A stretch of 62,241 nt of DNA, taken from a virus (taxonomy: Duplodnaviria > Caudoviricetes). The position numbers and the translations under genes were made by a program. Numbering within the stretch: the first letter of the stretch is position 1; the number at the start of each line of letters is the position of its first letter. The stretch is from IMG/VR virus record IMGVR_UViG_3300037485_001606, positions 1 to 62,241 of that record; one strand, written 5' to 3'. Under the pieces are notes generated by a model. The model was not told where the DNA came from and ran no database searches. It saw only the letters and a list, made by a program, of their open reading frames with translations. Shown in pieces: positions 4,101-27,163 of this stretch.

Positions 4101-4241
4101 TTGAGTAAGATCGACAAGACAGACGGGTTAAACGATGTCAAGGCAAATAGCTATACAAGATCGGCTACAGGTGATACCGTAGAAGGTTCTGCAGTGGACT
4201 GGGGCCGGGAATATCGTCTGTGGAAACAAAGCGCTGAATAA
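1143..4241 (+). CDS. Large multidomain virion-associated protein: N-terminal lytic transglycosylase (SLT-like), C-terminal PcfJ-like domain
   Basis: IAGAES..N, SSAGGLFQ, YAAHYFG lysozyme-like motifs; C-terminal EGKLMKHSIGGY..VYSLRD..SQIRGRFN pattern. Confidence 0.7.
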   Translation: MSQELSDKIRAAAQAKGIDPEVALRIAGAESTYNPKAQSKTSSAGGLFQVVDKTWKDFGGAPGKKMDPVENIRVGTDIIAKNTESLKGFLNRDPRPAEVYAAHYFGATGAKGVLSADPNTPAIDVLGARVIRDNPNLKGKTTGQVMAQLEKKMGGTAVAAPVVSREPIPEQTPAEQMMEPALRSGMTAQAPATPEVPAAAERTASLGPSYQAALALSFLSDTDDKEDRDIDREPGIAEKWLAEQPEKQTTLAGFSDISIKSPFAEPAQPQMLADGGEVGEPAPVREPGQVTGINKFLDFVAQRLPAEKFPTAGRVFLESVQGKQEPITESHFSPQELDTIREMVNLKGGESGAISYQDYGKLGKEMRKRGELPTSLSPSLFSMSDPLGNVQTTLGRFKYSRDPSGNLQVTDSYDFNPPNEMATQEARTGDYGALGPYGLIRDYAGEKLPPGKGRKVQINLGMPVKRAGGGEAEPTPEELEAASRPATVNPMIQRQGEAARRLAAMRDVNTLPDPRTYAAVSGFMGIAPDEMGFSAMHQDLPGIKKAGEAGFYAGTAAQVAPLVGPAAKMLGKFAGSALNERILAGKPPVPGLGMPSPLAFAVKPRGGVSAYTGQTPGISDVDHVILNYTKAAEQLRAPDEVQEFLRAKAPKYFASNYGTADDPLRTALRERRIEPFGRDQPKLPPYLIDTAGQPEARGYLQAKTDLERVYDEMTGIRPFALKPEGVTNMGSEASIRKMLSEKMGEEGVPIEARNVPSVNSYSQEDFAKYPSSSRMLSQFVENQEKLPSSIQHALKTGEPIFDVNPNMEMLSPLNVVQALQEVPANKLKNMSFPEALIQGAKALAPIRDYRTAIDLADRGASVPRKALDLYTRPVVDAPSVGGQWVQLTKPVATELEGKLMKHSIGGYGAGDYYGTAYTQLPYGGKKAFDDGLVRVYSLRDKQGLPEVSVEMAKSSAGKGDTWNVSQIRGRFNSEPSLETHGDIFNLLSKIDKTDGLNDVKANSYTRSATGDTVEGSAVDWGREYRLWKQSAE

Positions 4242-4250
4242 GGAATAAAA

Positions 4251-6668: not shown

Positions 6669-6720
6669 GAAAACGTATGTTTATCGCAAGGATGCGTTCA
6701 ATAAGGTGTTGATTACGTAA
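6577..6720 (+). CDS. Small basic protein (47 aa, MQPKTDKP...NKVLIT) overlapping the portal 3' end
   Basis: AAGGAA RBS at 6565-6570 ahead of ATG 6577; Lys/Pro-rich like the small genes at 11595 and 12273. Confidence 0.55.
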   Translation: MQPKTDKPAKAPNSKRLPSPKRVATPTDKPKKTYVYRKDAFNKVLIT

Positions 6721-6789
6721 CAAAAAGGTGCATAATGCACCCAAGCCCACGGACAGGGGTCTCATCTGTCTGCTTCATTGGAATAATCC

Positions 6790-6975
6790 ATGCTTGAATT
6801 TGCTGAAAGAACGCTGTTGGTTATCAAAGGACTTCGTCGCCAGACGGAGGACATTTTGGTGAGTGGCAGTGTGAAGGATATGGAGCAGTATCGGTTCCTG
6901 ATGGGACGCCTTGAAGGCTACAAGTTTGTTGAGATGGAAATTCAAAACCTACTCGGCAAAAACCAAGAGCAATAA
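6790..6975 (+). CDS. Conserved-type small hypothetical protein (61 aa)
   Basis: Fills the gap between portal and GroES; VKDMEQYRFLMG helix motif. Confidence 0.75.
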   Translation: MLEFAERTLLVIKGLRRQTEDILVSGSVKDMEQYRFLMGRLEGYKFVEMEIQNLLGKNQEQ

Positions 6976-6984
6976 GGAGTTTTT

Positions 6985-7437
6985 ATGGAAATGACTGCGC
7001 TGGAGAAGAAGTGGGCAGACGAAGCCGTTGCCCACGTGCCGTCCCTAGACGATGCTTATGACAAAGAGGGAAGCCTCGATGTCCAGAAGATCGAACAGAC
7101 GGTAATGGATCGTATTCCCACCCCCACGGGCTGGCGAATCATCATCCTGCCCTACCGAGGGGCTGAAAAATCCAAAGGTGGCATTGTGCTGTCAGAACAA
7201 ACCCGCCAGCGCGAGCAAGCGGCAACGGTCTGTGGCTATGTGTTATCTGTGGGCGAACTTGCCTATGCTGACCAAGGGAAATTCCCAACAGGTCCGTGGT
7301 GCAAGAAGGGGGACTGGGTTGTCTTTGGTCGCTACGCGGGCGCACGCTTGCCAATTGATGAAGGCGAAATCCGAATCCTCAACGATGATGAGATTTTGGC
7401 TACGATCAACAATCCTGAAGATATCATTCACCTATAA
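6985..7437 (+). CDS. groES: Co-chaperonin GroES (Cpn10) with N-terminal extension
   Basis: PTGWRIII..KSKGGIVL mobile loop, VLSVG, GDWVVFGRYAG, RILNDDEILA; AAGGAG RBS. Confidence 0.9.
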   Translation: MEMTALEKKWADEAVAHVPSLDDAYDKEGSLDVQKIEQTVMDRIPTPTGWRIIILPYRGAEKSKGGIVLSEQTRQREQAATVCGYVLSVGELAYADQGKFPTGPWCKKGDWVVFGRYAGARLPIDEGEIRILNDDEILATINNPEDIIHL

Positions 7438-7445
7438 GGCATGAC

Positions 7446-8363
7446 ATGAACAATGACATGAACCACGATCAGTTGGAGTTCGACCTTGGACAAGGCGAAA
7501 AAGAAGCCACGGTGACGTTTGAAAACGACGAAGCCGAAGGCAAGCAAGAACAACCGGTAGTTGAACAGAAGGAAACATCAGTTCATTCGGATGAGCTAGG
7601 CTCTGTCAACGAGGCCGTTCAGAAACGAATCGCCAAGCTGACCGCTAAGATGCGCGAGGCCGAGCGCCGCGAGCAGGCCGCCGTGGAGTATGCCAAGGGA
7701 TTGCAATCCCAGACGCAGAACCTCCAGCAACGACTAGTCAACACTGACTACAGCCGTCTAAGCGAAGCCAAAGCTCGATTGGAGTCTCAGCAGTCATCAC
7801 TGCGCCAGATTATCCAAAAGGCACGGGAAGAGAGTGACCTCGACACCGAAATGGAAGCACAAGAGCGCTTGGCCAGCCTGATACAGGAAAAAGGTCAAGT
7901 CTCTCAATGGCTAAATCAACAAGAGCACGCTGCTCGTAACCAACCTGCTCAACAGGAAGTTCCGCAACAGCGTCAACAACCAAAGCAAGCAGCCCCTGAT
8001 CCGCGTGCGGAAGACTGGGCTGCTAAAAACGAGTGGTTTGGACAAAATCGGGTAATGACTTACGCTGCATGGGGAATCCATCAGGATTTAATTGAGCGTG
8101 AGGGTGTTGACCCCCAGACCGACGAGTACTATACTGAATTGAATCGAAGAGTCAGGGAAGAATTTCCCCGGCATTTTGCAGGCGAGCAATCGTCTACTCA
8201 ATCAACCAGACAACAGCGTTCCGCGCCTGCTGTTGCCCCTGCATCCCGGAGTTCCGGAATAAATAGTGCGCGCCGAACTGTCCGGCTATCGCCGAGTCAG
8301 GTTGCTATTGCAAAGAAACTGGGTGTACCTCTTGAAGAGTATGCCAAGTACGTAAAGGAGTAA
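7446..8363 (+). CDS. Putative capsid scaffolding protein
   Basis: Acidic N-terminus, long coiled coil and short C-terminal helix motif, upstream of the capsid genes. Confidence 0.7.
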   Translation: MNNDMNHDQLEFDLGQGEKEATVTFENDEAEGKQEQPVVEQKETSVHSDELGSVNEAVQKRIAKLTAKMREAERREQAAVEYAKGLQSQTQNLQQRLVNTDYSRLSEAKARLESQQSSLRQIIQKAREESDLDTEMEAQERLASLIQEKGQVSQWLNQQEHAARNQPAQQEVPQQRQQPKQAAPDPRAEDWAAKNEWFGQNRVMTYAAWGIHQDLIEREGVDPQTDEYYTELNRRVREEFPRHFAGEQSSTQSTRQQRSAPAVAPASRSSGINSARRTVRLSPSQVAIAKKLGVPLEEYAKYVKE

Positions 8364-8366
8364 GTC

Positions 8367-8846
8367 ATGAGCGAAAAAATTACTATCGATAGAGCCAGCC
8401 GTTCCGCCGAAAGCCGGGACAAAGAAGTTCGTCGCAAGCCATGGCGTCCACCTTCACGTCTGGATGCACCACCTGCCCCCGAAGGGTATAAGTACCGTTG
8501 GATTCGTGCTGAAGTCAACGGGAACCTCGATAACCAAAACGTGTACAGCAAACTGCGTGAGGGATACGAACTTGTTCGTCCTGAAAATATTCCTGAGGAA
8601 TATCGTGCGACGCTGCCCACTATGGACGACGGCAAACATGCTGGCGTGATCTCCGTTGGTGGACTCTTGCTTGCCAAGATACCCGATGAGACCATTGAGG
8701 AACGAAATACTTATTTCCGCCAGAGGGCACAGGAACAGTTACATGCTGTGGACAACGAGATGATGCGTGAGAACGCCCACTCTTCAATGCGAATCCAGTC
8801 TCCGGACCGGAGTTCCCGCACAACATTCCGTCAGCCACAAGGCTGA
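8367..8846 (+). CDS. Conserved head-module protein (159 aa)
   Basis: WRPPSRLDAP..GYKYRWIR..LREGYELV..VGGLLLAKIP; coupled to the scaffold gene. Confidence 0.75.
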   Translation: MSEKITIDRASRSAESRDKEVRRKPWRPPSRLDAPPAPEGYKYRWIRAEVNGNLDNQNVYSKLREGYELVRPENIPEEYRATLPTMDDGKHAGVISVGGLLLAKIPDETIEERNTYFRQRAQEQLHAVDNEMMRENAHSSMRIQSPDRSSRTTFRQPQG

Positions 8847-8872
8847 TATCTTTAATCCTGTAGGAAATTCAA

Positions 8873-9460
8873 ATGGCAAATACTATTAAGCCTTTTGGTC
8901 TGCGTCCGTCGGGTAATCTTTCTGCTACCGGTGCTCAAAAGCAATACGGTTATCAGATCGAAGACAACTACAACACAGCCATTTTTCAAGGTGATCTCGT
9001 CGTCGTATTTGACGGTTACATCATCAAGTACGCCGCCGCTACACATGCCGCTCCAACTGGTGTGTTTAACGGTGTTCAGTACAACGACCCCACTCGAGCT
9101 AACAAGCCCACGTGGAAAAACTACTACCCCGGTAGCATCAACATCACCACAGGCATCATTGCTTGCGAAGTGTTGGACGATCCGTCGCAGTTGTTCTTGG
9201 TCCAAACTGATGGTGCATTTGTTCAAGCCAACATTGGCAAGAACGCTGACCCAACATCAGGAACCACAGGCAGTGTGAACTCTGGCGTATCGAATGGCTC
9301 TTTGGCCTCCTCGAGTATCGACAAAGCCTCCGGCCTGACTTTCAAAATCGTTGGCCTCTACGAGTCCCCAGAAAATGATCTGGGTGCAAATGCAGTGGTC
9401 GTTGTTAAACTCAATCAACACGTGTACGGTAGCGTCGGTGTTGCTGCAGATGGGATTTAA
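8873..9460 (+). CDS. Putative minor capsid/decoration protein
   Basis: MAN..PFGLRP start, IFQGDLV; directly upstream of the major capsid gene. Confidence 0.65.
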   Translation: MANTIKPFGLRPSGNLSATGAQKQYGYQIEDNYNTAIFQGDLVVVFDGYIIKYAAATHAAPTGVFNGVQYNDPTRANKPTWKNYYPGSINITTGIIACEVLDDPSQLFLVQTDGAFVQANIGKNADPTSGTTGSVNSGVSNGSLASSSIDKASGLTFKIVGLYESPENDLGANAVVVVKLNQHVYGSVGVAADGI

Positions 9461-9462
9461 TC

Positions 9463-10377
9463 ATGGCAATTACCCGTTCCCAACTAGTTAAAGAACTCGA
9501 ACCCGGCTTAAATGCCCTGTTTGGTCTGGAATACAAGCGTTACGAAAACGAGCACGAAGAGATTTTCTCTATCGAAACCTCGGATCGTGCGTTTGAAGAA
9601 GAGGTCATGCTGACGGGCTTCGGCTCCGCTCCAGTGAAGACCGAGGGCGCTGGCTTGGCATACGATACCGCTTTGGAATCGTTCACTGCTCGCTACACCC
9701 ACGAAACCATCGCTATGGCGTTTGCGCTGACGGAAGAAGCCGTTGAGGACAACCTCTATGACCGTCTTTCTGCTCGTTACACCAAAGCTTTGGCTCGCTC
9801 CATGGCCAACACTCGTCAGGTAAAAGCTGCCTCTGTGTTGAACAATGGCTTCACTGGCGGTCAGTATGCTGGTGGTGATGGCGTGGCCTTGATGGCCCTC
9901 GACCACCCCACTGCATTGGGCCCCAACTTTGCTAACCGTCCAGTAGTTGCTGCTGACTTGAACGAGACATCCCTCGAGCAAGGCATCATCGACATCGCAT
10001 CGTTCACAGACGAGCGCGGCCTGAAGGTTGCTTTGACAGCCCGCAAGATGATTGTTCCTAAGGAACTGCAGTTCACTGCAGAACGCCTGATGAAGAGCAC
10101 CTTGCGTACTTCCACTGCTGACAACGATATCAACGCAATCAAGTCCATGGGCCTGATTCCCGAAGGTTACGCTGTCAACCACTACCTGACTGACGTGGAT
10201 GCATGGTTCCTGATCACCGACGCGCCTAACGGCCTGAAGATGTTCAACCGTTCACCCATCAAGACAGCCTTCGAAGGTGACTTCGATACAGGTAACGTCC
10301 GTTACAAGGCCCGCGAGCGTTATAGCTTCGGCTGGTCTGACCCACGTGGTATCTACGGTTCACCCGGCGCGGCCTAA
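9463..10377 (+). CDS. Major capsid protein (Mu gpT-like family)
   Basis: MAITRSQLVKELEPGLNALFG start and RYKARERYSFGWSDPRG end; strongly biased codons; followed by a terminator. Confidence 0.9.
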   Translation: MAITRSQLVKELEPGLNALFGLEYKRYENEHEEIFSIETSDRAFEEEVMLTGFGSAPVKTEGAGLAYDTALESFTARYTHETIAMAFALTEEAVEDNLYDRLSARYTKALARSMANTRQVKAASVLNNGFTGGQYAGGDGVALMALDHPTALGPNFANRPVVAADLNETSLEQGIIDIASFTDERGLKVALTARKMIVPKELQFTAERLMKSTLRTSTADNDINAIKSMGLIPEGYAVNHYLTDVDAWFLITDAPNGLKMFNRSPIKTAFEGDFDTGNVRYKARERYSFGWSDPRGIYGSPGAA

Positions 10378-17839: not shown

Positions 17840-18592
17840 ATGGCAGTAACCAATTTCTCGCCTCTACTTGGCCTTGCGCTACCCACCACGGGTGACCTGC
17901 AGGGTACGTGGGGCACTATCGTCAATACCTCAATTACGAGCTTGATTGATTCCGCAGTTGCGGGGACGACTACGCTTTCTGCGGATGCCGACGTCACGCT
18001 GTCCACGACGCTCGGCGCTGCCAATACGTCCCGTGAGGCTATCATTCTGTGGACCGCTACGGGCACCGTTACGCGTAACATCACAGCCCCTGCCCAATCC
18101 AAATCCTACATTGTCATCAATGCCACGGGCGGAACGCAGTCCATCGTGATCCGCGGCGCGGGTCCGACAACAGGCGTTACCATTCCTGCCGGTGTACGCG
18201 CTTTGGTGGTATGGAACGGAACTGATTTTGTTAAGGTTGTCAGCCCTATCACGCTCACCACCGACGTAATAGGTATCCTTCCTGTAGCCAACGGAGGCAC
18301 AGGGACATCATCAACTACGTTTGTTAATCTGGCAACTAATGTGACGGGCACTCTTCCTGTGGCCAACGGAGGCACAGGAACAACATCCACTACGTTTGTT
18401 AATCTGGCAACTAACGTCACGGGTACTCTCCCTGTGGTAAATGGTGGTACTGGAACTGCTACTCCCACGCTGGTAGAGGGGGCTAATGTCACCATCACCG
18501 GGACATGGCCCAATCAAACTATTGCGACCACGGACACCAGTGGTATCACCGCTGGTAAATCTATCTCATTTGCAATGATCTTCGGCTTCTAA
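17840..18592 (+). CDS. Tail fibre protein with VTGTLPVANGGTG repeats
   Basis: LGLALP.TG..GTWG..VN N-terminus; tandem 25-aa repeats; GKSISFAMIFG end. Confidence 0.8.
   Translation: MAVTNFSPLLGLALPTTGDLQGTWGTIVNTSITSLIDSAVAGTTTLSADADVTLSTTLGAANTSREAIILWTATGTVTRNITAPAQSKSYIVINATGGTQSIVIRGAGPTTGVTIPAGVRALVVWNGTDFVKVVSPITLTTDVIGILPVANGGTGTSSTTFVNLATNVTGTLPVANGGTGTTSTTFVNLATNVTGTLPVVNGGTGTATPTLVEGANVTITGTWPNQTIATTDTSGITAGKSISFAMIFGF
18278..18454 (+). repeat. 75-bp tandem coding repeat (about 2.4 units) in the tail fibre
   Basis: Units begin at 18278, 18353 and 18428 and encode LPVANGGTGTxSTTFVNLATNVTGT. Confidence 0.9.
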
Positions 18593-18601
18593 GGAAACAA
18601 A

Positions 18602-18979
18602 ATGGCAAACCCCAATATAGTCAACGTAACGTCAATTCTTGGCACTACAACGTACCTCACACCCGCTAACACTACGGCCAACACACTGCTGTCTAATGCT
18701 GCGTCTTCAGGCTTGGTCTACAAAATCAACCAGATAGTATGCGCTAACGTCAACGGTGCTTCTGCTGTAAACGCAACTGTGGCAATCAACAGCGCAGCGG
18801 CTGGTGCTGGTACGAACTACCCTGTCATCTCCACCATCTCAGTGCCAGCTAGTGCGTCTGTGATTGCTGTGGATAAGACGACAAGTATCTACCTGATGGA
18901 GAATAGCTCCATCGTAGTGACCTCTGGCACGTCAAGCGGCATCACTTACACCTTGAGCTACGAATCCATAGCAGCGTGA
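18602..18979 (+). CDS. Conserved-type fibre-associated protein (125 aa)
   Basis: MANPNIVNVTSI start, DKTTSIYLMEN, SYE end; AAGGA RBS. Confidence 0.75.
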   Translation: MANPNIVNVTSILGTTTYLTPANTTANTLLSNAASSGLVYKINQIVCANVNGASAVNATVAINSAAAGAGTNYPVISTISVPASASVIAVDKTTSIYLMENSSIVVTSGTSSGITYTLSYESIAA

Positions 18980-18989
18980 GGGTAGCCCC

Positions 18990-20138
18990 ATGAGCATTAG
19001 ACAACATAATCTGGGCAGCATTGTCAAGCCGGGGTTCAATGCGCTTGGGCCACAGACAAGTGTCATTACTTACCAGCCGTACCTGTATTCGTGGGGAAAT
19101 AACGAATACGGGCAGCTTGGGCTAGGCGATATGACATATTACTCATCACCTAAACAAGTAGGTGCGCTTACTAACTGGTTGAACTTAGCGGGTGGGTATA
19201 AACACAGCATCGCTACTAAATCAGACGGAACACTTTGGACATGGGGATATAACATCAATGGTGCATTAGGTCTAGGTAACACCACTAACTATTCAAGCCC
19301 TAAACAAGTTGGTTCTTTAACTACTTGGTCGTATGTAACTGCTGGATATAACTTTTCGGCGGCTATTAAAACTGATGGTACTCTTTGGACATGGGGTGTA
19401 GGCACTAATGGACAGTTGGGACATGGTAATACAACTAATCGTTCTTCACCTGTTCAAGTTGGTGCTTTAACAACGTGGCTCACTGTTGCTGCCGGATATA
19501 GACAGACTGGGGCTGTTAAGACTGATGGAACTCTATGGATGTGGGGTGGTAACGATCAAGGACAACTAGGTCTAGGCAACACAACAACCTACTCAAGCCC
19601 TAAACAAGTAGGCGCATTGACTAATTGGAAAGATATACGAGTTGGCTATTACTCCTCTGTAGCCACTAAAACTGATGGAACTATCTGGACATGGGGAGCT
19701 AGTTTAGATGGGGCGTTAGGATTAGGCAACACCACATACTACTCCAGCCCTAAACAAGTAGGTGCATTAACTACTTGGCTGACAGGATTTACCTCTAATA
19801 ATAGCGCTTTCACTGTAGCTACTAAAACAGATGGTACTCTTTGGTCGTGGGGGTATAACGGCATAGGTCAACTAGGGTTAGGTAACACCACCAACTTTTC
19901 AAGTCCTAAACAAGTAGGATTACTCACTAATTGGAAATCTGTAACTCTTGGAATGAGGCAAAACTACACCGTAGCTACTAAAACAGATGGCACTTTATGG
20001 ACATGGGGGTATAACGTTCATGGACAATTAGGTCTAGGCAACACTACTCACTACTCTAGCCCTAAACAAGTAGGTGCATTAACTAATTGGCTGACAATAG
20101 CAAGTGGAACCGGCCATGTCCTAGCCACCCTCTATTAA
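18990..20138 (+). CDS. RCC1/BLIP-II-like 7-repeat beta-propeller protein, type A copy 1
   Basis: Seven WG.N..GQLGLG.TT.YSSPKQVG.LT.W..KTDGTLW repeats of about 50 aa. Confidence 0.9.
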   Translation: MSIRQHNLGSIVKPGFNALGPQTSVITYQPYLYSWGNNEYGQLGLGDMTYYSSPKQVGALTNWLNLAGGYKHSIATKSDGTLWTWGYNINGALGLGNTTNYSSPKQVGSLTTWSYVTAGYNFSAAIKTDGTLWTWGVGTNGQLGHGNTTNRSSPVQVGALTTWLTVAAGYRQTGAVKTDGTLWMWGGNDQGQLGLGNTTTYSSPKQVGALTNWKDIRVGYYSSVATKTDGTIWTWGASLDGALGLGNTTYYSSPKQVGALTTWLTGFTSNNSAFTVATKTDGTLWSWGYNGIGQLGLGNTTNFSSPKQVGLLTNWKSVTLGMRQNYTVATKTDGTLWTWGYNVHGQLGLGNTTHYSSPKQVGALTNWLTIASGTGHVLATLY

Positions 20139-20147
20139 GAACACACT

Positions 20148-21305
20148 ATGCCATCAACAACACTCGTATCAGGCGTCCAATACTCCGGCATCTGGACAAT
20201 GCAACAGGTGAATGCCGCTGTAGCTGCGGGGACTTGGCCGGGGCTGCCACAGTTGTGGGTTTGGGGTGCGAATAATGCGGGTCAGTTGGGTCTTGGCAAC
20301 ACTACCGACTACTCATCCCCCAAACAAGTTGGTGCGTTAACTAATTGGTCTAAACTTGCGGCCGGTAATGGTCACAGTCTGGTTATTAAAACAGATAATA
20401 CTTTGTGGGCGTGGGGGCAAGGTAATCAAGGTCGATTAGGTTTGGGGAATACAACATACTACTCATCCCCTAAGCAAGTCGGTGCTCTGACAAATTGGTT
20501 AAAAATTTCTACGGGTTCAGGTGCTACTGGTAGTATTAAAACCGATGGAACTTTGTGGTTATGGGGAGCCGCTAACTATGGACAATTAGGGCGTGGTAAC
20601 ACTACAGATTATTCGTCACCAGTCCAATTGGGTGCTTTAACTACATGGTCAGCGTTGTCTTTAGGTAATGGTTTTACAATGGCCATTACAACTAGCGGAG
20701 CTTTATATGCGTGGGGTATAAATAATACGGGTCAATTAGGTTTAGGTAATACAACAAGCTACTCAAGCCCCAAACAAGTTGGTTTATTAACAACATGGGC
20801 AACAATTTCTGCTGGCAATTCAATGAATGTTGCAGTAAAAACAGATGGAACCATGTGGACTTGGGGGGCAAACCCTTTTGGTGATCTAGGCTTAGGCAAC
20901 ACTACATACTACTCAAGCCCTAAACAAGTTGGCGCACTGACTACTTGGAGCCAAGTAACAAACGGGCAATATCAATGCGCGGCTATAAAGACAGATGGTA
21001 CTCTTTGGGCTTGGGGTTACAACGAAAGCGGAAGACTTGGTTTGGGTGATATTGTTAATCGTTCTAGTCCGGTGCAAGTTGGTGCGCTTACTAATTGGTT
21101 AGTGGTGGATTCGTTAAGCACCTCTACGAAAGCTATCAAAACAGATGGAACACTGTGGTCATGGGGTAAGGGGAACGGTGGTCAATCTGGTTTAGGAAAC
21201 ACCACCAATTATTCCAGTCCTAAACAAGTTGGAACCTTGACAACATGGACAACCATTGGTTGTGGTTGGGGCGGTAGTTTTGTATTAGCAATCAAGACCA
21301 CTTGA
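20148..21305 (+). CDS. RCC1/BLIP-II-like 7-repeat beta-propeller protein, type B copy 1
   Basis: Seven repeats; N-terminal SGVQYSGIW..GTWP leader. Confidence 0.9.
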   Translation: MPSTTLVSGVQYSGIWTMQQVNAAVAAGTWPGLPQLWVWGANNAGQLGLGNTTDYSSPKQVGALTNWSKLAAGNGHSLVIKTDNTLWAWGQGNQGRLGLGNTTYYSSPKQVGALTNWLKISTGSGATGSIKTDGTLWLWGAANYGQLGRGNTTDYSSPVQLGALTTWSALSLGNGFTMAITTSGALYAWGINNTGQLGLGNTTSYSSPKQVGLLTTWATISAGNSMNVAVKTDGTMWTWGANPFGDLGLGNTTYYSSPKQVGALTTWSQVTNGQYQCAAIKTDGTLWAWGYNESGRLGLGDIVNRSSPVQVGALTNWLVVDSLSTSTKAIKTDGTLWSWGKGNGGQSGLGNTTNYSSPKQVGTLTTWTTIGCGWGGSFVLAIKTT

Positions 21306-21325
21306 TCCAGAGTTAGAATTTAACA

Positions 21326-23095
21326 ATGAACAAAACACTCCACTTCCTTTCTGGCATCCCTCGTTCCGGCTCTACGGTGCTTGCTGCCATCCTCAACCAG
21401 AACCCAATGACTCACGTTTCAACAACGTCTGGTCTGGTTCATGCGCTTGATGGATTGGCGAACACTTGGCATTCTGCTGGGCTGCTGAACGAGAACGACC
21501 CTGAGAGAACTAAGCTGGCTCAGACAATGCGTGGTGCGATTGATGCGTTCTACGAGGATGAGACTGCCCCTGTCATCATCGACAAGTCCCGTGGCTGGCC
21601 TATCGCGCAGATTATGGCGGCTATGTCTCAAGTGCTGGGCAAGCAGCCTAAAATCATCGCTACGGTTCGTTCAGTGCCAGACTGTGCTGCGTCCTTTGTG
21701 CGTGTGGCAAAGCCTGAGAACCTTGACGAGTTCATGTACTCCGGTCAGTTGATGGATCACCTCAAAGCTGCTTACATCTCCCTCCAGAACGGCTACAACT
21801 TCGCTCCTGAGAACTTCTTGTTCGTTGAGTATGAAGACCTCTTGGCTGACCCCAAAGCGCAGTTGGCCCGTATCCATGCGTTCCTTGAACTGCCTGAGTT
21901 CAGCTACGACTTCGACAACATTGACGGTTCTACAGTGGCTGAAGATGACGAGAACTTACACGGTCATGCGGGGATGCACGATGTCAAGCCCAAGCTGGAA
22001 GCACAGCACAAGCAAGACCCCAAAGACTTGCTGAAATCCCACTACTCTTCATTCTGTCAGCCTGAGTTCTGGCTAGACACACCGCGCACAACACCAGAGC
22101 TTCATGCACTGGATATGCAGCTTGCAGCCTCTACTACAGGTGACTTCGCTGAAGGCTGGCGCTTGGCTCAACAACTGGAAGCTGACGAACCCACGAACCA
22201 CCGCGCAGCCTACAACCGTGGCTGGTATCTGCTGCGTCAAGGCCAGATTCAAAAGGGTTATCAACTGATGGACAGAGGTCGTGTGGCTGGTGTGTTTGGC
22301 AACAAGAAGCCTGATGTACCCACACCACAATGGGACGGTAAGACTAAAGGCATTGTCCTGCTTAACCTAGAAGGTGGCTTGGGTGACCAGATTCACCAAG
22401 TGCGTTATGCCAAGTACATCGCTGCCCGTGGCTGTAAAGTCATTGTGGCTTGCACAGGTTCACTCGCTTCTTTGTTTGTTGACGTTGAAGGCGTGTCCTC
22501 CGTGATTCAACATGAAGCTGTGTTCGGCATCTACCACGACTTCTGGGTGGCTGGTATGTCGGCTGTAGTGCCACTAGGCTTTGATTTGGCAGATATCTCT
22601 GGTGCGCCCTACCTGACTAAGCCTACGACGATTAAAGGCCGTAAGAAGCGCATTGGCTTGCGCTGGCAAGGGTCTACTCAGTTTGAACATGAGCATCACA
22701 AAGCCTTCCCATACGAGTTGATGTTTGCGGCTGTCAAGGACGCAGATGCTGAGTTCATTAGCTTACAACGTGACGAAGGCGCAGACGCTGCTCCTGCTTG
22801 GGTAAAGCAAGTACCTCTGAATAGCTGGGAAGACACCCGCGCTGCCGCTGCCAGTTGCGACTTGGTGATTAGCTCTTGCACGTCAGTCAGTCACATCGCT
22901 GCTGCTATGGGAGTTGAGACTTGGGTGATAACCCCCGTTATGCCATACTTCCTGTACGCCCTTGAAGGCGAGAGCACACCGTACTACGACAGCATGAAGC
23001 TGATGCGCCAAGAAGTGTTTGGCGACTGGCAAGCTCCGTTCGACCACATCAAAGACCGCTTGGGTGAGAAGCCCATGCTAAGGAGTGTTGCATGA
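21326..23095 (+). CDS. Sulfotransferase - TPR-like - glycosyltransferase (GT9/heptosyltransferase-like) fusion
   Basis: PAPS-binding motifs SGIPRSGSTVL and KIIATVRSVPDCAASF, VEYEDL; AAYNRGWYLL helix; EGGLGDQI, IGLRWQG, CDLVISSCTSVSHIAAAMG GT-B motifs. Confidence 0.85.
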   Translation: MNKTLHFLSGIPRSGSTVLAAILNQNPMTHVSTTSGLVHALDGLANTWHSAGLLNENDPERTKLAQTMRGAIDAFYEDETAPVIIDKSRGWPIAQIMAAMSQVLGKQPKIIATVRSVPDCAASFVRVAKPENLDEFMYSGQLMDHLKAAYISLQNGYNFAPENFLFVEYEDLLADPKAQLARIHAFLELPEFSYDFDNIDGSTVAEDDENLHGHAGMHDVKPKLEAQHKQDPKDLLKSHYSSFCQPEFWLDTPRTTPELHALDMQLAASTTGDFAEGWRLAQQLEADEPTNHRAAYNRGWYLLRQGQIQKGYQLMDRGRVAGVFGNKKPDVPTPQWDGKTKGIVLLNLEGGLGDQIHQVRYAKYIAARGCKVIVACTGSLASLFVDVEGVSSVIQHEAVFGIYHDFWVAGMSAVVPLGFDLADISGAPYLTKPTTIKGRKKRIGLRWQGSTQFEHEHHKAFPYELMFAAVKDADAEFISLQRDEGADAAPAWVKQVPLNSWEDTRAAAASCDLVISSCTSVSHIAAAMGVETWVITPVMPYFLYALEGESTPYYDSMKLMRQEVFGDWQAPFDHIKDRLGEKPMLRSVA

Positions 23096-24228
23096 GTTTT
23101 AGATACAGTTCGGGGATAAACAAGCCGGGGTTTAATCCGCTGGGGGTGCAGACGAGTACGAATACATACTTCCCATACTTATATAGCTGGGGAACTAATA
23201 GTTCTGGGCAACTTGGTTTAAATGATGGCACAAACCGTTCAAGCCCAACTCAAGTTGGCAGTTTATATGATTGGACTACTGTTTCTGCTGGGGGTAATTT
23301 CGGTGCGGCTGTTAAAACTAATGGTACTTTGTGGACGTGGGGTGATAATACAAGTGGTAAATTAGGTCTTGGAAATACAACATCTTACTCATCACCAAAA
23401 CAAGTTGGGGCACTGACAAATTGGGCAAAAGTTCAGGCCTGTAGTGCTTGTTGTTTTGCTATTAAAACCAATGGAACTTTATGGTCTTGGGGTGCTGGAT
23501 CAGGGGGAAGACTGGGGCTAAGTACGGCATTTAGTTATTCTTCTCCTGTACAAGTAGGTACTTTAACAAACTGGTTACATATTGCTAATACCTATGATTC
23601 AGGAACGGCAATTAAAACCGATGGCACTTTATGGTCTTGGGGAACTAACGCAATAGGACAGTTGGGGTTAGGTGATACTACCAATAGAAATAGCCCAGTT
23701 CAGGTTGGTACTTTAACAAATTGGTCGCAAGTAAATACAACCCCAAGAGAAGCTGTTATAGCTACTAAAACGGATGGAACTCTTTGGTCTTGGGGGCGAA
23801 ATAACAACGGTAGGCTTGGGCTTGGTAATACCACAAGTTACTCTAGTCCAAAACAAGTAGGTACATTAACAAACTGGCTATCTGCATTTGGTGGATATAG
23901 ATTTGGTTTGGCTATTAAAACCGATGGGACACTATGGTCTTGGGGTATGAATACTAGCGGTGAATTGGGTCTTAATAGTGCAACACCCTCTTTCTCCAGC
24001 CCTCAACAAGTAGGTACGCTAACTAATTGGCTCAGTGTTGCAGGAGGGTACTATCATAGCGTAGCGGTAAGCACTGATAATAAACTATGGTCTTGGGGAA
24101 AAAATAATATAGGACAGCTTGGTCTTGGTAATACAACTAACTATTCATCCCCAAAACAAGTTGGCGCAGCTACACAGTGGGTTTCTGCGTATGCTCAAGG
24201 CGCATATTCTTTTGCCACATTTTATTAA
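23092..24228 (+). CDS. RCC1/BLIP-II-like 7-repeat beta-propeller protein, type A copy 2
   Basis: Seven repeats; KPGFN.LG.QTS..TY.PYLYSWG leader shared with the 18990 gene. Confidence 0.9.
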   Translation: MSFRYSSGINKPGFNPLGVQTSTNTYFPYLYSWGTNSSGQLGLNDGTNRSSPTQVGSLYDWTTVSAGGNFGAAVKTNGTLWTWGDNTSGKLGLGNTTSYSSPKQVGALTNWAKVQACSACCFAIKTNGTLWSWGAGSGGRLGLSTAFSYSSPVQVGTLTNWLHIANTYDSGTAIKTDGTLWSWGTNAIGQLGLGDTTNRNSPVQVGTLTNWSQVNTTPREAVIATKTDGTLWSWGRNNNGRLGLGNTTSYSSPKQVGTLTNWLSAFGGYRFGLAIKTDGTLWSWGMNTSGELGLNSATPSFSSPQQVGTLTNWLSVAGGYYHSVAVSTDNKLWSWGKNNIGQLGLGNTTNYSSPKQVGAATQWVSAYAQGAYSFATFY

Positions 24229-24237
24229 AAGAACACT

Positions 24238-25407
24238 ATGCCAGTAACAACATCAGTATCAGGCGTTCAATACTCCGGCATCTGGAGTCTCGCAGGGCAA
24301 GCTAACGCTAAGGCGTTGGGGACTTGGCCTATCGCTTATGGGCCTCAAGGTTTATGGAGTTGGGGCAGTAACGGTCTAGGAAAATTAGGCTTAGGAAATC
24401 TTACCGCGTATTCCTCCCCTAAACAAATAGGAAGTTTAACAGCTTGGAAATCTATATCCGCTGGGGATGTACAAGGTTTAGCCATTAAATTAGACGGCAC
24501 ACTTTGGTCTTGGGGCGCAGGCGCTAATGGTGTACTGGGTCTTGGCAATACAACCAACTATTCCTCACCTAAACAAGTGGGCGCATTAACCAATTGGTTA
24601 AAAGTTTCAGCAGGGTATGATAAATTCAATTTAGCAACAAAGACTGACGGTACGCTATGGGCTTGGGGAAAAAATAATAATGGTCAACTCGGTTTAAGTA
24701 ACACCACCTATTATTCATCACCAAAGCAAATCGGCTCTGGGACTACTTGGTCAGACATAGCCGCCGCAGGATATTGTTCATTAGCTATCAAAACAGACGG
24801 AACTTTATGGTCGTGGGGATACAACGGTGCGGGTCAACTAGGTTTGGGCAACACAACTAGTTATTCTTCTCCTAAGCAAGTTGGAGCTTTAACTACTTGG
24901 TCTAAAGTAAATGGCGGCACTGCTCATAGTTTAGCTATCAAAACAGACGGAACGCTTTGGTCTTGGGGTGATGGAGCCTATGGTAAATTGGGCTTAGGCA
25001 ATACAACTTATTACTCATCCCCTAAGCAAGTTGGTGCATTAACTACGTGGTCAAATTCTGTTGGAGCTGCTTACCGAACTTTAGCTGTTAAAACCGATGG
25101 AACGCTTTGGTCTTGGGGGTTTGGATACGCAGGTGAACTAGGTTTAGGTAACACTACAGATTATTCTTCGCCTAAACAAATAGGCGCATTAACAAGTTGG
25201 GCTATTGTTCCTACTGGGTGCGGAAATACATTTTCTATGGCAATTAAGACGGATAAAACATTATGGGTTTGGGGTAGAAATGCTGGAGGTTATTTGGGAC
25301 TTGGAAATACAACCAACTATTCCTCACCTAAACAAGTTGGATCATTGACCACTTGGCTTAATATAAGCAATGGCGCAGACTCTACATTAGCAATCCAAAC
25401 AGCATAG
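24238..25407 (+). CDS. RCC1/BLIP-II-like 7-repeat beta-propeller protein, type B copy 2
   Basis: Seven repeats; SGVQYSGIW..GTWP leader shared with the 20148 gene. Confidence 0.9.
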   Translation: MPVTTSVSGVQYSGIWSLAGQANAKALGTWPIAYGPQGLWSWGSNGLGKLGLGNLTAYSSPKQIGSLTAWKSISAGDVQGLAIKLDGTLWSWGAGANGVLGLGNTTNYSSPKQVGALTNWLKVSAGYDKFNLATKTDGTLWAWGKNNNGQLGLSNTTYYSSPKQIGSGTTWSDIAAAGYCSLAIKTDGTLWSWGYNGAGQLGLGNTTSYSSPKQVGALTTWSKVNGGTAHSLAIKTDGTLWSWGDGAYGKLGLGNTTYYSSPKQVGALTTWSNSVGAAYRTLAVKTDGTLWSWGFGYAGELGLGNTTDYSSPKQIGALTSWAIVPTGCGNTFSMAIKTDKTLWVWGRNAGGYLGLGNTTNYSSPKQVGSLTTWLNISNGADSTLAIQTA

Positions 25408-25444
25408 TCCAGAGTTAGAATTTAATTTTTAAAAAGGAAAAATC

Positions 25445-25834
25445 ATGTCATTATTCGTACGCATTCAAAACAATCTCGTAACCGACTGCTGGGATACACC
25501 TCCCCCTGCTGGTCAAGATGGTTGGAAATCAGCCGTTGAAGTTCGTCCTTCAATCACAGCGCATCGTCAAGGCTACACAGCCCACACGTTTAATCTGTCC
25601 ACTGACCCCGTGCAGATTGTGTACAACACCTACGACATCCCTGTCGAAGACCGCAAAGCTGGCATGAAAGCCAATGCCTCGTTCAGCTTCCAGCAAGTTG
25701 TCCAAGAGCAAATGCGTGACCCATCTAAGTACGACCCCGCTGCTGTTGCTGCTGCACAAGCTGCCGTTGCTCCAAAGGTTGCTGCCATCGAAGCTGCCAC
25801 AACGCACGACGAACTTGATACACTGATGGGATGA
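25445..25834 (+). CDS. Hypothetical protein, possibly a fibre-assembly chaperone
   Basis: AAAGGA RBS; IEAATTHDEL C-terminus resembles tail-fibre assembly proteins. Confidence 0.6.
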   Translation: MSLFVRIQNNLVTDCWDTPPPAGQDGWKSAVEVRPSITAHRQGYTAHTFNLSTDPVQIVYNTYDIPVEDRKAGMKANASFSFQQVVQEQMRDPSKYDPAAVAAAQAAVAPKVAAIEAATTHDELDTLMG

Positions 25835-26268
25835 AAATCCTCATCCTCGGTTTACCCGGAACTGGCAAAACCACACTAGCAGAAGCTCTCGCAAGGGAGC
25901 TTCAGTGCGTTCACTTCAACGCTGACGACATACGCAAGCACATCAACAAGGACTTGGGCTTCTCTGAAGCTGACCGGGTTGAGCAAGCTAGGCGTATGGG
26001 TCATCTGTGCAACATCACAAGTAAGTGGGGCGCTAACGTCATTGCTGACTTCGTTTGCCCTACAGAGGAAACTCGTAAGGCTTTCGACGCAGACTTTGTT
26101 ATATGGGTAGACCGTATCAAAGAGGGACGCTTTGCTGACACAAACAAGATATTTGTACCACCAGTAAAGTTCAACTCTAGGGTGACAGGTGCTTTCGATA
26201 ACTGCTTCCCAACGTATCAGGCAGAGCAACTAGCTGGGATGATTCGCAGCTTTAGAAAGACGTTATGA
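25831..26268 (+). CDS. cysC: Adenylyl-sulfate (APS) kinase-like protein, compact form
   Basis: P-loop GLPGTGKTT, NADDIR, DLGFSEADRVEQARR signature, VIADFVCP. Confidence 0.8.
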   Translation: MKILILGLPGTGKTTLAEALARELQCVHFNADDIRKHINKDLGFSEADRVEQARRMGHLCNITSKWGANVIADFVCPTEETRKAFDADFVIWVDRIKEGRFADTNKIFVPPVKFNSRVTGAFDNCFPTYQAEQLAGMIRSFRKTL

Positions 26269-26654
26269 GTGATATTACTGGCCTTGGTGCTGTAACTGAA
26301 CTCGCTTCCACGGTCATCAATAAAATTTGGCCCGACAAGAGCGAAGCGGAAAGGCAGCAGCTTGCAGCAGCCGTGATGGTTGTCCAAGGCCAGATTGATA
26401 TAAACAAGGTTGAAGCCGCAAGCCCCTCTGTCTTCGTGAGTGGCTGGAGACCTTTTATAGGGTGGGTATGCGGTGTAGCCTGCGCTTGGAACTGGATTGG
26501 GCTAAAGGTAGCCCTATTTGTCGCTGCGTACTTGGGTCACCCCTTGGATATGCAACCCGCAGATGTATCTGAAATGATGCCCGTCTTGCTGGGTATGCTG
26601 GGCCTAAGCGGATTTAGAACAGTGGAAAAGATCAAGGGTGTAAACAGGTTATGA
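26265..26654 (+). CDS. Holin (3TM, GTA-release type)
   Basis: FVSGWRPFIGWVCG, LLGMLGLSGFRTVEKIKG; next to the endolysin. Confidence 0.85.
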   Translation: MSDITGLGAVTELASTVINKIWPDKSEAERQQLAAAVMVVQGQIDINKVEAASPSVFVSGWRPFIGWVCGVACAWNWIGLKVALFVAAYLGHPLDMQPADVSEMMPVLLGMLGLSGFRTVEKIKGVNRL

Positions 26655-27163
26655 AAGAGAACTTCCTAAACTCATTAAAAGCGGTTCTTGTTCACGAAGG
26701 AGGATTCGTAAATCACCCAAAGGACCCCGGGGGGATGACCAATTTAGGTTGTACCAAGGCCGTTTGGGAAGAGCACTGTGGTCACCCCGTAGATGAAAAA
26801 GCCATGCGGGCGCTGGTCGTCGCTGATGTAGCCCCTCTGTATAAGCATAAGTACTGGGACAAGGTCCGCGGCGATGAGCTTCCTTCCGGGGTAGACTTCT
26901 GCGTTTTCGATGCGGCCATCAACAGCGGTCCGCGCTACGCGGCCAAATGGCTGCAAGCCTGTGTAGGCGCTGAAGTAGATGGAAGCATTGGACCTAAAAC
27001 CCTGACCGCGGCCCGCGCCATGGACCCTAAACAACTGATTGACGACTACAGCCGCCGACGCTTGTCGTTCTTGACTGATCTAGCTCATTGGGATACATTT
27101 GGTAGAGGCTGGACGCGCCGTGTGAACGAGGTCACCAGTACCGCATCGACAATGACCGCATGA
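26651..27163 (+). CDS. Endolysin, glycoside hydrolase family 108 with peptidoglycan-binding domain
   Basis: HEGGFVNHPKDPGGMTNLG, FDAAINSG, DGSIGPKT, FGRGWTRRV. Confidence 0.92.
   Translation: MKENFLNSLKAVLVHEGGFVNHPKDPGGMTNLGCTKAVWEEHCGHPVDEKAMRALVVADVAPLYKHKYWDKVRGDELPSGVDFCVFDAAINSGPRYAAKWLQACVGAEVDGSIGPKTLTAARAMDPKQLIDDYSRRRLSFLTDLAHWDTFGRGWTRRVNEVTSTASTMTA

Follow-up and report, generated by a model that had tools for sequence, protein, structure and literature searches.

Why should a phage carry, directly after its fibre genes, four RCC1 beta-propeller genes interleaved with a sulfotransferase-glycosyltransferase fusion and followed by a gene that resembles adenosine 5'-phosphosulfate (APS) kinases? 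This is the question raised by positions 18990-26268 of the IMG/VR virus record IMGVR_UViG_3300037485_001606. The window, by which we mean the whole stretch of DNA analyzed, is this record at its full length, a complete virus of 62,241 bp with direct terminal repeats (DTR), and its portal protein shares 60% identity with the portal of Phage DSL-LC04 and 47% with the one of Pelagibacter phage HTVC023P. We have found that the four-part set formed by RCC1 propellers, a glycosyltransferase (GT), a sulfotransferase (ST) and the kinase is recurrent across unrelated phages. We propose that a complete podovirus-like phage has its variable receptor-binding slot here, and the recurrence of the set points to an undescribed phage pathway for decoration with sulfated sugars.

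An earlier note on this DNA had described seven open reading frames (ORFs) in the region, and all of them were confirmed at their coordinates, on the + strand. RCC1-A1 (18990-20138, 382 amino acids (aa); Pfam RCC1 3.6e-76) and RCC1-B1 (20148-21305, 385 aa; 4.6e-71) code for stand-alone seven-bladed propellers. They are followed by a gene (21326-23095, 589 aa; Sulfotransfer_3 7.8e-17) for a fusion of an ST domain, tetratricopeptide repeats (TPR) and a putative GT9-like domain of GT-B type, and then by a second pair of seven-bladed propellers, RCC1-A2 (23092-24228, 378 aa; 9.1e-70) and RCC1-B2 (24238-25407, 389 aa; 1.8e-70). The series ends with g129 (25445-25834, 129 aa), a core component of the module, and with an APS-kinase-type P-loop kinase (25831-26268, 145 aa; APS_kinase 2.1e-16). 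The ATGA overlaps noted at 23092 and 25831 were also found when the sequence was inspected.

The linkage of these genes was examined among the relatives of the fusion. A scan of IMG/VR gave 130 of them, from which 80 loci were kept (71-94% identity), and 68 of these had at least 1.3 kb on both sides and were assessable for abutment. An RCC1 gene abuts the fusion in 66 of the 68 loci, on both sides in 50, and in the two exceptions (L037 and L048) the RCC1 genes were located slightly farther from it. Homologues of g129 were present in all of the 59 assessable loci and those of up125, the conserved gene that precedes RCC1-A1, in 51 of 65. The kinase was found in 32 of 48, as the short form in 22 and fused to a nucleotidyltransferase domain in 10, and a Methyltransf_11 gene accompanied the fusion in 11/48. 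Several of these loci have nothing else in common with the window proteome, indicating that the module moves between phage backgrounds.

Outside this clade, RCC1 and GT9-like genes, usually together with an ST, appear as separate genes in five other phage lineages. In Synechococcus phage S-SRM01 the order is tail fibre, RCC1-(TPR-GT), RCC1-sulfotransferase, and then a glycosyltransferase and a nucleotide-sugar epimerase; the marine virus AG-345-E08 has two RCC1 genes, a TPR-GT gene and then RCC1 plus ST. The loci L092-L094 code for a 1049-aa protein with 21 RCC1 repeats, followed by the GT and then the ST, and in Synechococcus phage BUCT-ZZ01 the tail fibre precedes a 13-repeat RCC1 protein and a TPR-GT protein with a C-terminal methyltransferase-like end. 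The fifth, L147 on a 372-kb contig, carries two RCC1 genes, a DUF4376 gene, ST, GT and a TylF-like sugar O-methyltransferase, with a kinase 4 kb on. Matches to RCC1 of any kind are rare, being found in only 36 of the 50,697 records of the phage collection, and RCC1 adjoins the GT domain in three of the four distinct GT-bearing phages of that collection. With P0115 as seed no more distant loci were found. The ST and GT9-like domains were also found fused in both orders (P0026 and P0136 versus P0027, P0061 and P0041), which indicates that their coupling arose more than once. The earlier view of these genes as a functional module, brought together by more than chance, is upheld by the abutment in 66/68 loci and by the recurrence in five other lineages, and the couplings of kinase with ST and of ST with GT are well supported.

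What, then, are the propellers? According to Pfam every one of the four proteins has seven RCC1 repeats (E 4e-76 to 9e-70), and the PF25390 RCC1-like domain scored 239-251 bits against a cut-off of 150, with RCC1-A1 at 251 bits. Beyond the seven repeats each ~380-aa protein has an N-terminal tail of ~30-38 residues and little else; in RCC1-B1 the N-terminal segment reads SGVQYSGIW...GTWP. Many relatives (L021:11747-12955, L046:11767-12978, L064:9993-11207 and about 25 more) carry downstream of the fusion, instead of the A/B pair, a single RCC1 gene of ~402 aa, and its N-terminus joins an A-like start (MS.KYPGG) to a B-like motif, SGIWT..Q.....G.WP. At the other extreme, L048 holds eight RCC1 genes within 17 kb. 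The count of 28 repeats over the four propellers proved right (27 parsed pieces, one of them holding two repeats), as did the statement that most of them carry a TT-x-YSS loop, since the exact TTxYSS is found in 19 of the 28 (a regular expression matched 18 of the 27 pieces, and the double piece, read by eye, has the motif in both repeats). Over 159 RCC1 proteins of the window clade, with 996 loops, the consensus is G-x-L-G-L-G-N-T-T-x-Y-S-S-P.

The earlier note had also remarked that the RCC1 genes are richer in AT than the rest of the genome, and our figures agree: their GC content is 0.42-0.46 vs. 0.53 for the genome. At third codon positions (GC3) the values are 0.35 for RCC1-A1, 0.36 for RCC1-B1, 0.28 for RCC1-A2 and 0.32 for RCC1-B2, while most of the tabulated neighbouring genes lie at 0.52-0.71 and g129 at 0.48. 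The fusion gene, located between the AT-rich RCC1 genes, has a GC3 of 0.57, the level of the genome itself, so that the RCC1 cassettes appear to derive from AT-richer genomes. They are also the variable part of the locus, the best RCC1 identity being ~64% where the fusion, g129 and up125 exceed 90%. The same slot, after up125, contains in relatives fn3 plus Lcl_C lectin-fold proteins or a protein with a glycine-rich domain. RCC1 genes come after annotated tail-fibre genes in S-SRM01, BUCT-ZZ01 and LIBA2945, and the PHROG matches of the RCC1 proteins to 'tail protein' are weak (down to E 1e-10). From the equivalence of the slot, the hypervariability and the foreign codon use we infer that the RCC1 genes are exchangeable receptor-binding cassettes.

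Two other versions of the slot were seen. In L103:1084-3574, where the kinase is 90% identical, up125 is followed by a lectin-fold protein (Lcl_C) together with a reverse transcriptase (RVT_1, 1.4e-18), a neighbourhood that suggests a diversity-generating retroelement acting on a receptor-binding protein. The nearest cultured relative of the window phage, DSL-LC04 (L168), has at 2959-10261 a 'putative lectin' (the up125 homologue), a 561-aa protein, a 2-oxoglutarate (2OG)-Fe(II) oxygenase and a concanavalin-A-like lectin/glucanase protein of >1300 aa, and neither RCC1 nor ST nor kinase was found in this slot.

The ST part covers approximately residues 1-250 of the 589-aa fusion. Residues 7-190 match PF13469 Sulfotransfer_3 with 62.7 bits (cut-off 27) and PF00685 Sulfotransfer_1 with 40.9 (cut-off 22). 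The site for 3'-phosphoadenosine 5'-phosphosulfate (PAPS) in these enzymes is defined by a 5'-phosphosulfate-binding motif (5'-PSB), PxxGxT with a basic residue, and by a 3'-phosphate-binding motif (3'-PB), Arg...Ser. The first is the loop GIPRSGST at residues 10-17, kept among relatives at P12 (20/22), R13 (20/22), G15 (21/22) and T17 (19/22), and the second comprises R115 (25/25) and S123 (23/25); K87 is also conserved among the fusion relatives. Judged by these alignments, the PAPS-binding motifs of the ST domain are intact and conserved. A second, stand-alone ST of ~260 aa, 31-32% identical to the N-terminal domain of the fusion, is present in L048:6561-7343 and L037:13105-13884.

The link to protein-tyrosine sulfotransferases drawn in the earlier note did not hold. 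In the search of PDB profiles the nearest solved relatives of the domain were the ST of CurM, SULT1C2 and the heparan-sulfate 3-O-sulfotransferase (3-OST), ahead of TPST1, and NoeE gave a weak NCBIfam match to the fusion (E 0.004, far below the cut-off). The catalytic Glu of TPST2 lies about 21 residues after the 5'-PSB Arg, and in the phmmer alignment to 8w5z_A the tyrosine sulfotransferase reads 'cgeet' where the phage protein reads 'vstts', with Thr at the position of the catalytic Glu. Besides, the Tyr of the propeller loop is found in 66% of the 996 loops of the window clade and recurs in AG-345-E08, which also has an ST, but in three of the four other lineages with a linked ST its place is taken by a basic residue (K in L092, R in L147 and S-SRM01). 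Sulfation of tyrosine was rejected on these three grounds, i.e., the Thr at the catalytic position, the rank of TPST among the solved relatives and the loop Tyr that is not kept.

The remainder of the fusion consists of one or two TPR units at ~265-315, which match designed TPR proteins in the search of PDB profiles, and of a predicted GT9-like GT-B domain at ~335-585. No GT9 chain was among the matches of that search with the fusion, and the assignment is drawn from four indirect results. First, 28 of the 30 named Atlas hits of the C-terminal domain are GT9 (score 0.96). Second, hhalign against WaaC/WaaF/WaaU gave a probability of 78.6% (E 1.7e-5) over only 44 columns around DLVISSCTSVSHIAAAMG, a stretch that spans the nucleotide-sugar motif. 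Third, in the N-terminal half of the GT domain, where hhalign is weak (24.8% probability), the invariant G353-D354 falls over G12-D13 of WaaC. Fourth, PF01075 is listed on six of nine longer relatives. Taken together they suggest a GT9-like domain, whose conserved residues are E349-GG-x-GD354, S517-C518-T519 and H523. Its family is large, with 28,240 clusters (50% identity, E up to 0.001), and family, structure and literature searches found no function for it. Many members (P0008, P0016, P0017, P0018 and others) are proteins of 1,400-3,100 aa with three to six copies of the domain; of these multi-copy proteins we looked up two, both of which bear the name tetratricopeptide repeat protein and one of which belongs to an Oscillatoriales cyanobacterium. 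P0306, of 1149 aa, combines an ST, TPR, a Pfam call for GT41 (OGT-like) and the GT9-like domain.

The donor of the ST would come from the last gene of the series. The 19 best PDB matches to its product are all APS kinases or APS-kinase domains (E 2.6e-9 to 2e-6), in alignments that span residues 3-84 only. The P-loop reads GLPGTGKT, and the segment nadDiRkhinkdLGFseaDRveQaRR aligns with ldgDniRqglnknLGFspeDReeNvRR of human PAPSS1. The APS-binding residues of APS kinases are the R after DGD, LGF-S and DR, and the R, LGFS and DR are kept in the phage protein; D32, R35, F44, R49, Q52 and P77 are invariant in 10 members of its family. This family is made up of proteins of 137-168 aa from phage-like contigs (2255 clusters within the lengths searched). 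An ST was present in 39 of 64 further kinase loci, and in ~37 a stand-alone ST of ~270 aa lies directly upstream of the short kinase, its start 803-826 nt upstream of it; in L112, L116, L121 and L106 the ST stop overlaps the kinase start by 4 nt. No RCC1, GT domain or g129 was found in these ~37 loci, and the pair of ST and kinase is therefore a unit of its own. Independent gene arrangements thus link the kinase with sulfotransferases, in line with the earlier reading of the locus, and this context is the strongest functional clue that the 145-aa protein is probably an APS kinase.

The absence of an ATP sulfurylase reported before was borne out, none being found in the 62,241-bp genome, where cytidylyltransferase-like and PAPS-reductase searches gave no match either. 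The sole match in the bacterial genome collection was L102 (JBIKII010000332.1, 3-1253), 86% identical to the fusion, on a 23-kb phage-like contig binned in a Caulobacter sp. metagenome-assembled genome (MAG), such binning being weak evidence for the host. The idea that the phage carries a kinase to supply a host without PAPS was unsupported, as this MAG encodes an APS kinase of its own, in a 714-aa open frame.

These parts could fit together as follows. The four RCC1 propellers would be exchangeable distal fibre or receptor-binding cassettes, decorated by the 589-aa enzyme in the cytoplasm ahead of assembly. The TPR segment would dock the protein substrate, the GT9-like GT-B domain would use a nucleotide sugar to glycosylate the repeated loops of the blades, and the ST domain would then sulfate the product, either the sugar or a side chain, using PAPS. 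The 145-aa kinase would phosphorylate host-made APS to PAPS and, as we propose, the donor would in this way not run out late in infection. Relatives would swap or add tailoring genes here, such as a methyltransferase, a second ST or a fusion of kinase and nucleotidyltransferase. We infer the propellers as acceptor, APS as the substrate of the kinase and the order of the reactions. That the propellers themselves are decorated by the resident enzyme before assembly is the reading we favour, with a chance that we put somewhat below even. The fuller version, where in phages of several lineages a TPR-guided GT9-like transferase sugars each RCC1 blade, the fused ST makes this sugar anionic and a minimal APS kinase secures the donor, is a tentative and rather doubtful proposal.

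The main competitor of propeller decoration is that the fusion and the kinase modify a glycan of the host envelope (lipopolysaccharide (LPS) core, O-antigen or a capsule precursor) to which the cassettes bind. Acting at the cytoplasmic face, the enzymes would mask the receptor, and infected cells or their debris would stop adsorbing progeny or superinfecting phages; since the enzymes have to fit the receptor, their genes would then stay together with the receptor-binding ones. We consider this possible, on the unlikely side. The GT domain is tied to RCC1 in six lineages with hosts from Synechococcus to possibly alphaproteobacterial ones; the envelope glycans of these hosts differ and the propeller is the common element, which speaks for the propellers as acceptors and against the masking of a receptor. 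The TPR that precede the GT domain point in the same direction, TPR before a GT being a trait of protein-directed transferases. So do the 2OG-Fe(II) oxygenase in the DSL-LC04 slot, an example of other protein-modifying enzymes in this place and of a class not known to us to act on LPS, and the overlap of the RCC1-A2 start with the stop codon of the fusion. The sugar-type O-methyltransferases that accompany the GT also count for decoration of the propellers.

A number of results weigh against decoration of the propellers, and several of them are what a masked receptor would predict. The catalytic domain is GT9-like, and the GT9 enzymes that have been characterised are heptosyltransferases of the LPS core, so that the textbook substrate of the family is the LPS core and not a protein. 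The match to GT9 is itself incomplete: on the fusion, Pfam PF01075 gave E 0.25 and 11.1 bits (cut-off 22) over 24 residues. The position of WaaC Asp261, which we take to be the sugar-binding Asp of the DxGxxH motif, is Cys518 in the phage protein and is kept as such in 39/41 relatives; the donor is therefore probably not ADP-heptose. The enzymes also stay while the cassette changes, with RCC1 in the window clade and fn3/Lcl_C lectin-fold proteins, instead of RCC1, in the ~37 loci with the ST-kinase pair. The stand-alone STs of S-SKS1, AG-345-O18, AG-345-L05 and S-SCSM1 have no RCC1 within the flanks that were read, and neither has the GT domain of MW202512, whose neighbours are the capsid gene, a galT-like gene and a methyltransferase of FkbM type. 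Thus STs and the GT domain occur without RCC1 as well, and co-occurrence fits modification of the propellers and of a bound host glycan equally. Phage genes that modify the receptor often adjoin tail-fibre genes, and the neighbours in S-SRM01 include a glycosyltransferase and a nucleotide-sugar epimerase; a passage in PMC8557907 adds NodZ-like and GT2-like ORFs near them.

The propeller loops themselves do not reveal an acceptor. The earlier note had taken their richness in hydroxyl groups as a sign of modification, but the T and the S-S-P are common to the RCC1 proteins of other lineages and only the N and Y of the TT-x-YSS-type consensus are specific to the clade. Beyond the generic RCC1 T/S-S-P no acceptor residue is conserved across lineages, again as expected if the acceptor were on the host. 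N-x-S/T was found at one loop position in 72% of the 996 window-clade loops, with S/T in 719 of the 770 loops that have the N and in 149 of the 226 without it. This sequon is frequent in the window clade, in S-SRM01 and in AG-345-E08 (N-[TKQ]-T). As a general rule N-glycosylation was dropped, since L092 and BUCT-ZZ01 have mostly D-G-T and the L147 loops are mostly without the sequon.

The same caution applies to the kinase. Its match to Pfam APS_kinase (2.1e-16) covers only profile positions 5-91 of 152, its NCBIfam score for apsK (TIGR00455) is 57.5 bits, below the cut-off of 138.7, and the DGD motif reads NAD, with the first Asp replaced by Asn. A fusion without any phage kinase was found in 16 of the 48 assessable relatives. 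The co-occurrence of the enzymes with RCC1 proposed as a check in the earlier note thus held for the abutment with the fusion (66/68), and failed in so far as the kinase is absent from these 16 loci and the enzymes occur also without RCC1. The kinase form with a C-terminal HxGH nucleotidyltransferase (GRWQPWHxGH ... ISAT.IR; weak Pfam CTP_transf_like), of 248-280 aa, has a sulfotransferase nearby in only 1 of 24 loci, and in Xylella phage Salvo, which carries the fused form, neither PF03567 nor PF13469 was found. Examples of this form are L014:14770-15612, L011:12156-12941, L050:12115-12951, L072:13976-14818 and that of Salvo (L085:5992-6738). Its order of domains is that of the animal PAPS synthase, the kinase and then the adenylyltransferase, and it may for this reason be a miniature PAPS synthase.

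These facts bear on another explanation, that the slot is a hot spot which collects mobile accessory genes and that the enzymes have a target that has nothing to do with the propellers, e.g., a different virion protein, a small molecule, DNA or nucleotide sugars, in which case the kinase may not make PAPS. The slot is a mosaic among relatives, where methyltransferase, homing-endonuclease-like ORF, extra ST, reverse transcriptase and 2OG oxygenase come and go. The fusions of kinase and nucleotidyltransferase are mostly without an ST neighbour, and the translational coupling of the window kinase is as close with the holin as with g129. In Ralstonia phage phiRSL1 (L086, 5989-12226) a 231-aa kinase homologue, annotated as APS kinase, has as cluster neighbours two TET-associated-glycosyltransferase-like genes, a pair of nucleotidyltransferases and, ~4.7 kb away from it, a Sulfotransfer_2 gene; these neighbours suggest a DNA or nucleotide-sugar pathway, and the cluster may represent a different sulfo-glycan or DNA-modification pathway. 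We regard a hot spot of this kind as quite improbable. It leaves unexplained the recurring set of RCC1, GT and ST in unrelated genomes, including phages of 156-372 kb, the two independent orders of ST/GT fusion and the ~37 ST-kinase pairs with overlapping stop and start.

The surroundings of the module agree with a receptor-binding slot. The first 18 kb of the genome contain the terminase, the portal, a major-head-protein-like gene and tail-like genes, and more virion proteins are found from 27.2 kb. The upstream frame of the slot is a tail-fibre-like protein of 250 aa with repeated LPVANGGTG motifs (17840-18592, +). Its product had no match in Pfam or PHROGs; its tblastn matches are annotated as tail fiber domain protein, tail spike and minor tail, with the homologue in DSL-LC04 annotated as intramolecular chaperone auto-processing domain protein. 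The position after the fibre genes given in the earlier note is thereby sustained, and its 'tail module' in part: fibre genes do precede the region, but the holin and endolysin come directly after it, followed by more virion genes. Between the fibre-like gene and RCC1-A1 lies up125 (18602-18979, +), a conserved 125-aa protein ahead of the variable cassettes, without matches in the family searches (Pfam, PHROG and NCBIfam). Its DSL-LC04 homologue, the 'putative lectin', is 56% identical, and up125 precedes non-RCC1 cassettes too in the loci of the ST-kinase pair.

The downstream border, outside the module, is formed by the holin (26265-26654, +; PF11351 1.1e-17, PHROG holin) and a GH108 endolysin (26651-27163, +; PF05838 3.7e-26, PG_binding_3, PHROG endolysin). 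Two further ATGA overlaps, at 26265 (kinase/holin) and 26651 (holin/endolysin), were found here, so that g129, kinase, holin and endolysin are chained by three 4-nt ATGA overlaps (25445-27163), with the lysis genes amid the structural block and virion proteins on either side. Promoter-like sites were fewer than in shuffled sequences (8 vs. 16.1 +/- 3.3) and terminator-like sites about equal (12 vs. 14.4 +/- 3.2), and neither revealed operon boundaries. The 62,241-bp genome yielded no tRNA genes, and a nucleotide search of the region against the phage collection gave no match.

The protein g129 gave no Pfam, PHROG or NCBIfam match, and with E values up to 5 allowed no Pfam family was found in more than two of 15 of its homologues. 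Among named Atlas clusters those closest to it are families of tail assembly chaperones, at a score of only 0.85-0.88, and by hhalign g129 is unrelated to the DUF4376 protein and to the 142-aa ORF of the ST-kinase loci. A chaperone of fibre assembly was not accepted as its function, since the Atlas lead stood alone and neither Pfam nor hhalign gave support; g129 could be a fibre-assembly helper, a weak lead.

Phage sulfotransferases count among the auxiliary genes to which no role has been assigned, and their function 'remains unclear' in the words of a 2023 paper on OM43 phages (PMC10580990), and a passage in the paper on the jumbo phage phAPEC6 holds that nothing is known about RCC1 proteins in prokaryotes (PMC7247149). 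In the main text of the S-SRM01 genome paper a search for the terms found no mention of the RCC1 and sulfotransferase genes. The 26 occurrences of 'RCC1' in PMC12906663 proved to be strain numbers of a culture collection and not the protein. The literature that we searched contains no description of the sulfation of a phage protein or glycan, nor the combination of RCC1 propeller, TPR-GT9-like transferase, sulfotransferase and minimal APS-kinase-like gene in a phage fibre slot. Here phage sulfotransferases and RCC1 proteins are tied to the receptor-binding slot as a recurring four-part set. If the propellers are indeed sulfated, the pathway would be the first to sulfate a bacteriophage virion, and host recognition would be tuned through the chemistry of the receptor-binding protein, beyond its sequence. 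With the propellers as acceptors, host recognition by widespread freshwater and marine phages would depend on a post-translational sulfo-glycan code invisible to sequence-based host prediction; with a host glycan as acceptor, they would make up a new enzyme family for receptor masking. In both cases the module offers cloneable enzymes and substrates that are directly testable.

Parts of this module have counterparts in known systems. TPST and RaxST share with the phage protein the GxPRSG(S/T)T 5'-PSB motif and the 3'-PB Arg and Ser, and differ by the catalytic Glu of TPST, which is Thr in the phage, and in that the RCC1 loop Tyr is not kept in most of the other ST-linked lineages. The APS-kinase domains of CysC and the PAPS synthases align with the phage kinase over the P-loop, the R, LGFS, DR and the FxxP segment; only the first ~85 residues do so, and the lid and C-terminal half differ. 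Rhizobia sulfate their Nod factors by NodH or NoeE sulfotransferases with PAPS supplied from NodPQ. There, as in the phage, the sulfotransferase travels with a dedicated APS-kinase activity, and a glycan is sulfated independently of sulfur assimilation; the phage differs by having no ATP sulfurylase and a kinase of the minimal 145-aa form. TibC and Aah are bacterial autotransporter heptosyltransferases that act on TibA and AIDA-I, and they resemble the predicted system in the GT9-type fold that works in the cytoplasm on a protein of many near-identical repeats and yields a multiply glycosylated adhesin. They have neither TPR nor an ST domain, while the phage protein matched no GT9 chain in the PDB profile search and has Cys518 at the Asp position of WaaC. 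Seroconversion genes of temperate phages are envelope-modifying enzymes linked to the receptor-binding gene, the known ones being acetyl- or glucosyl-transferases and often membrane proteins. The genetic linkage of modifying enzymes to the receptor-binding gene is the same here, but the enzymes are a soluble ST-TPR-GT fusion and a kinase, in a DTR phage. Finally, viruses are known to glycosylate their own structural proteins, as in the capsid and tail tube of mycobacteriophages and the capsid glycans of chloroviruses. As in those systems, the phage has glycosyltransferase genes beside structural genes and action in the cytoplasm before assembly would be expected, with O-methyltransferases accompanying the module in some relatives. 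The differences are that the candidate targets here are RCC1 propellers in the fibre slot and that the putative GT9-like transferase comes with TPR, fused to a sulfotransferase and joined by a kinase that would supply its PAPS.

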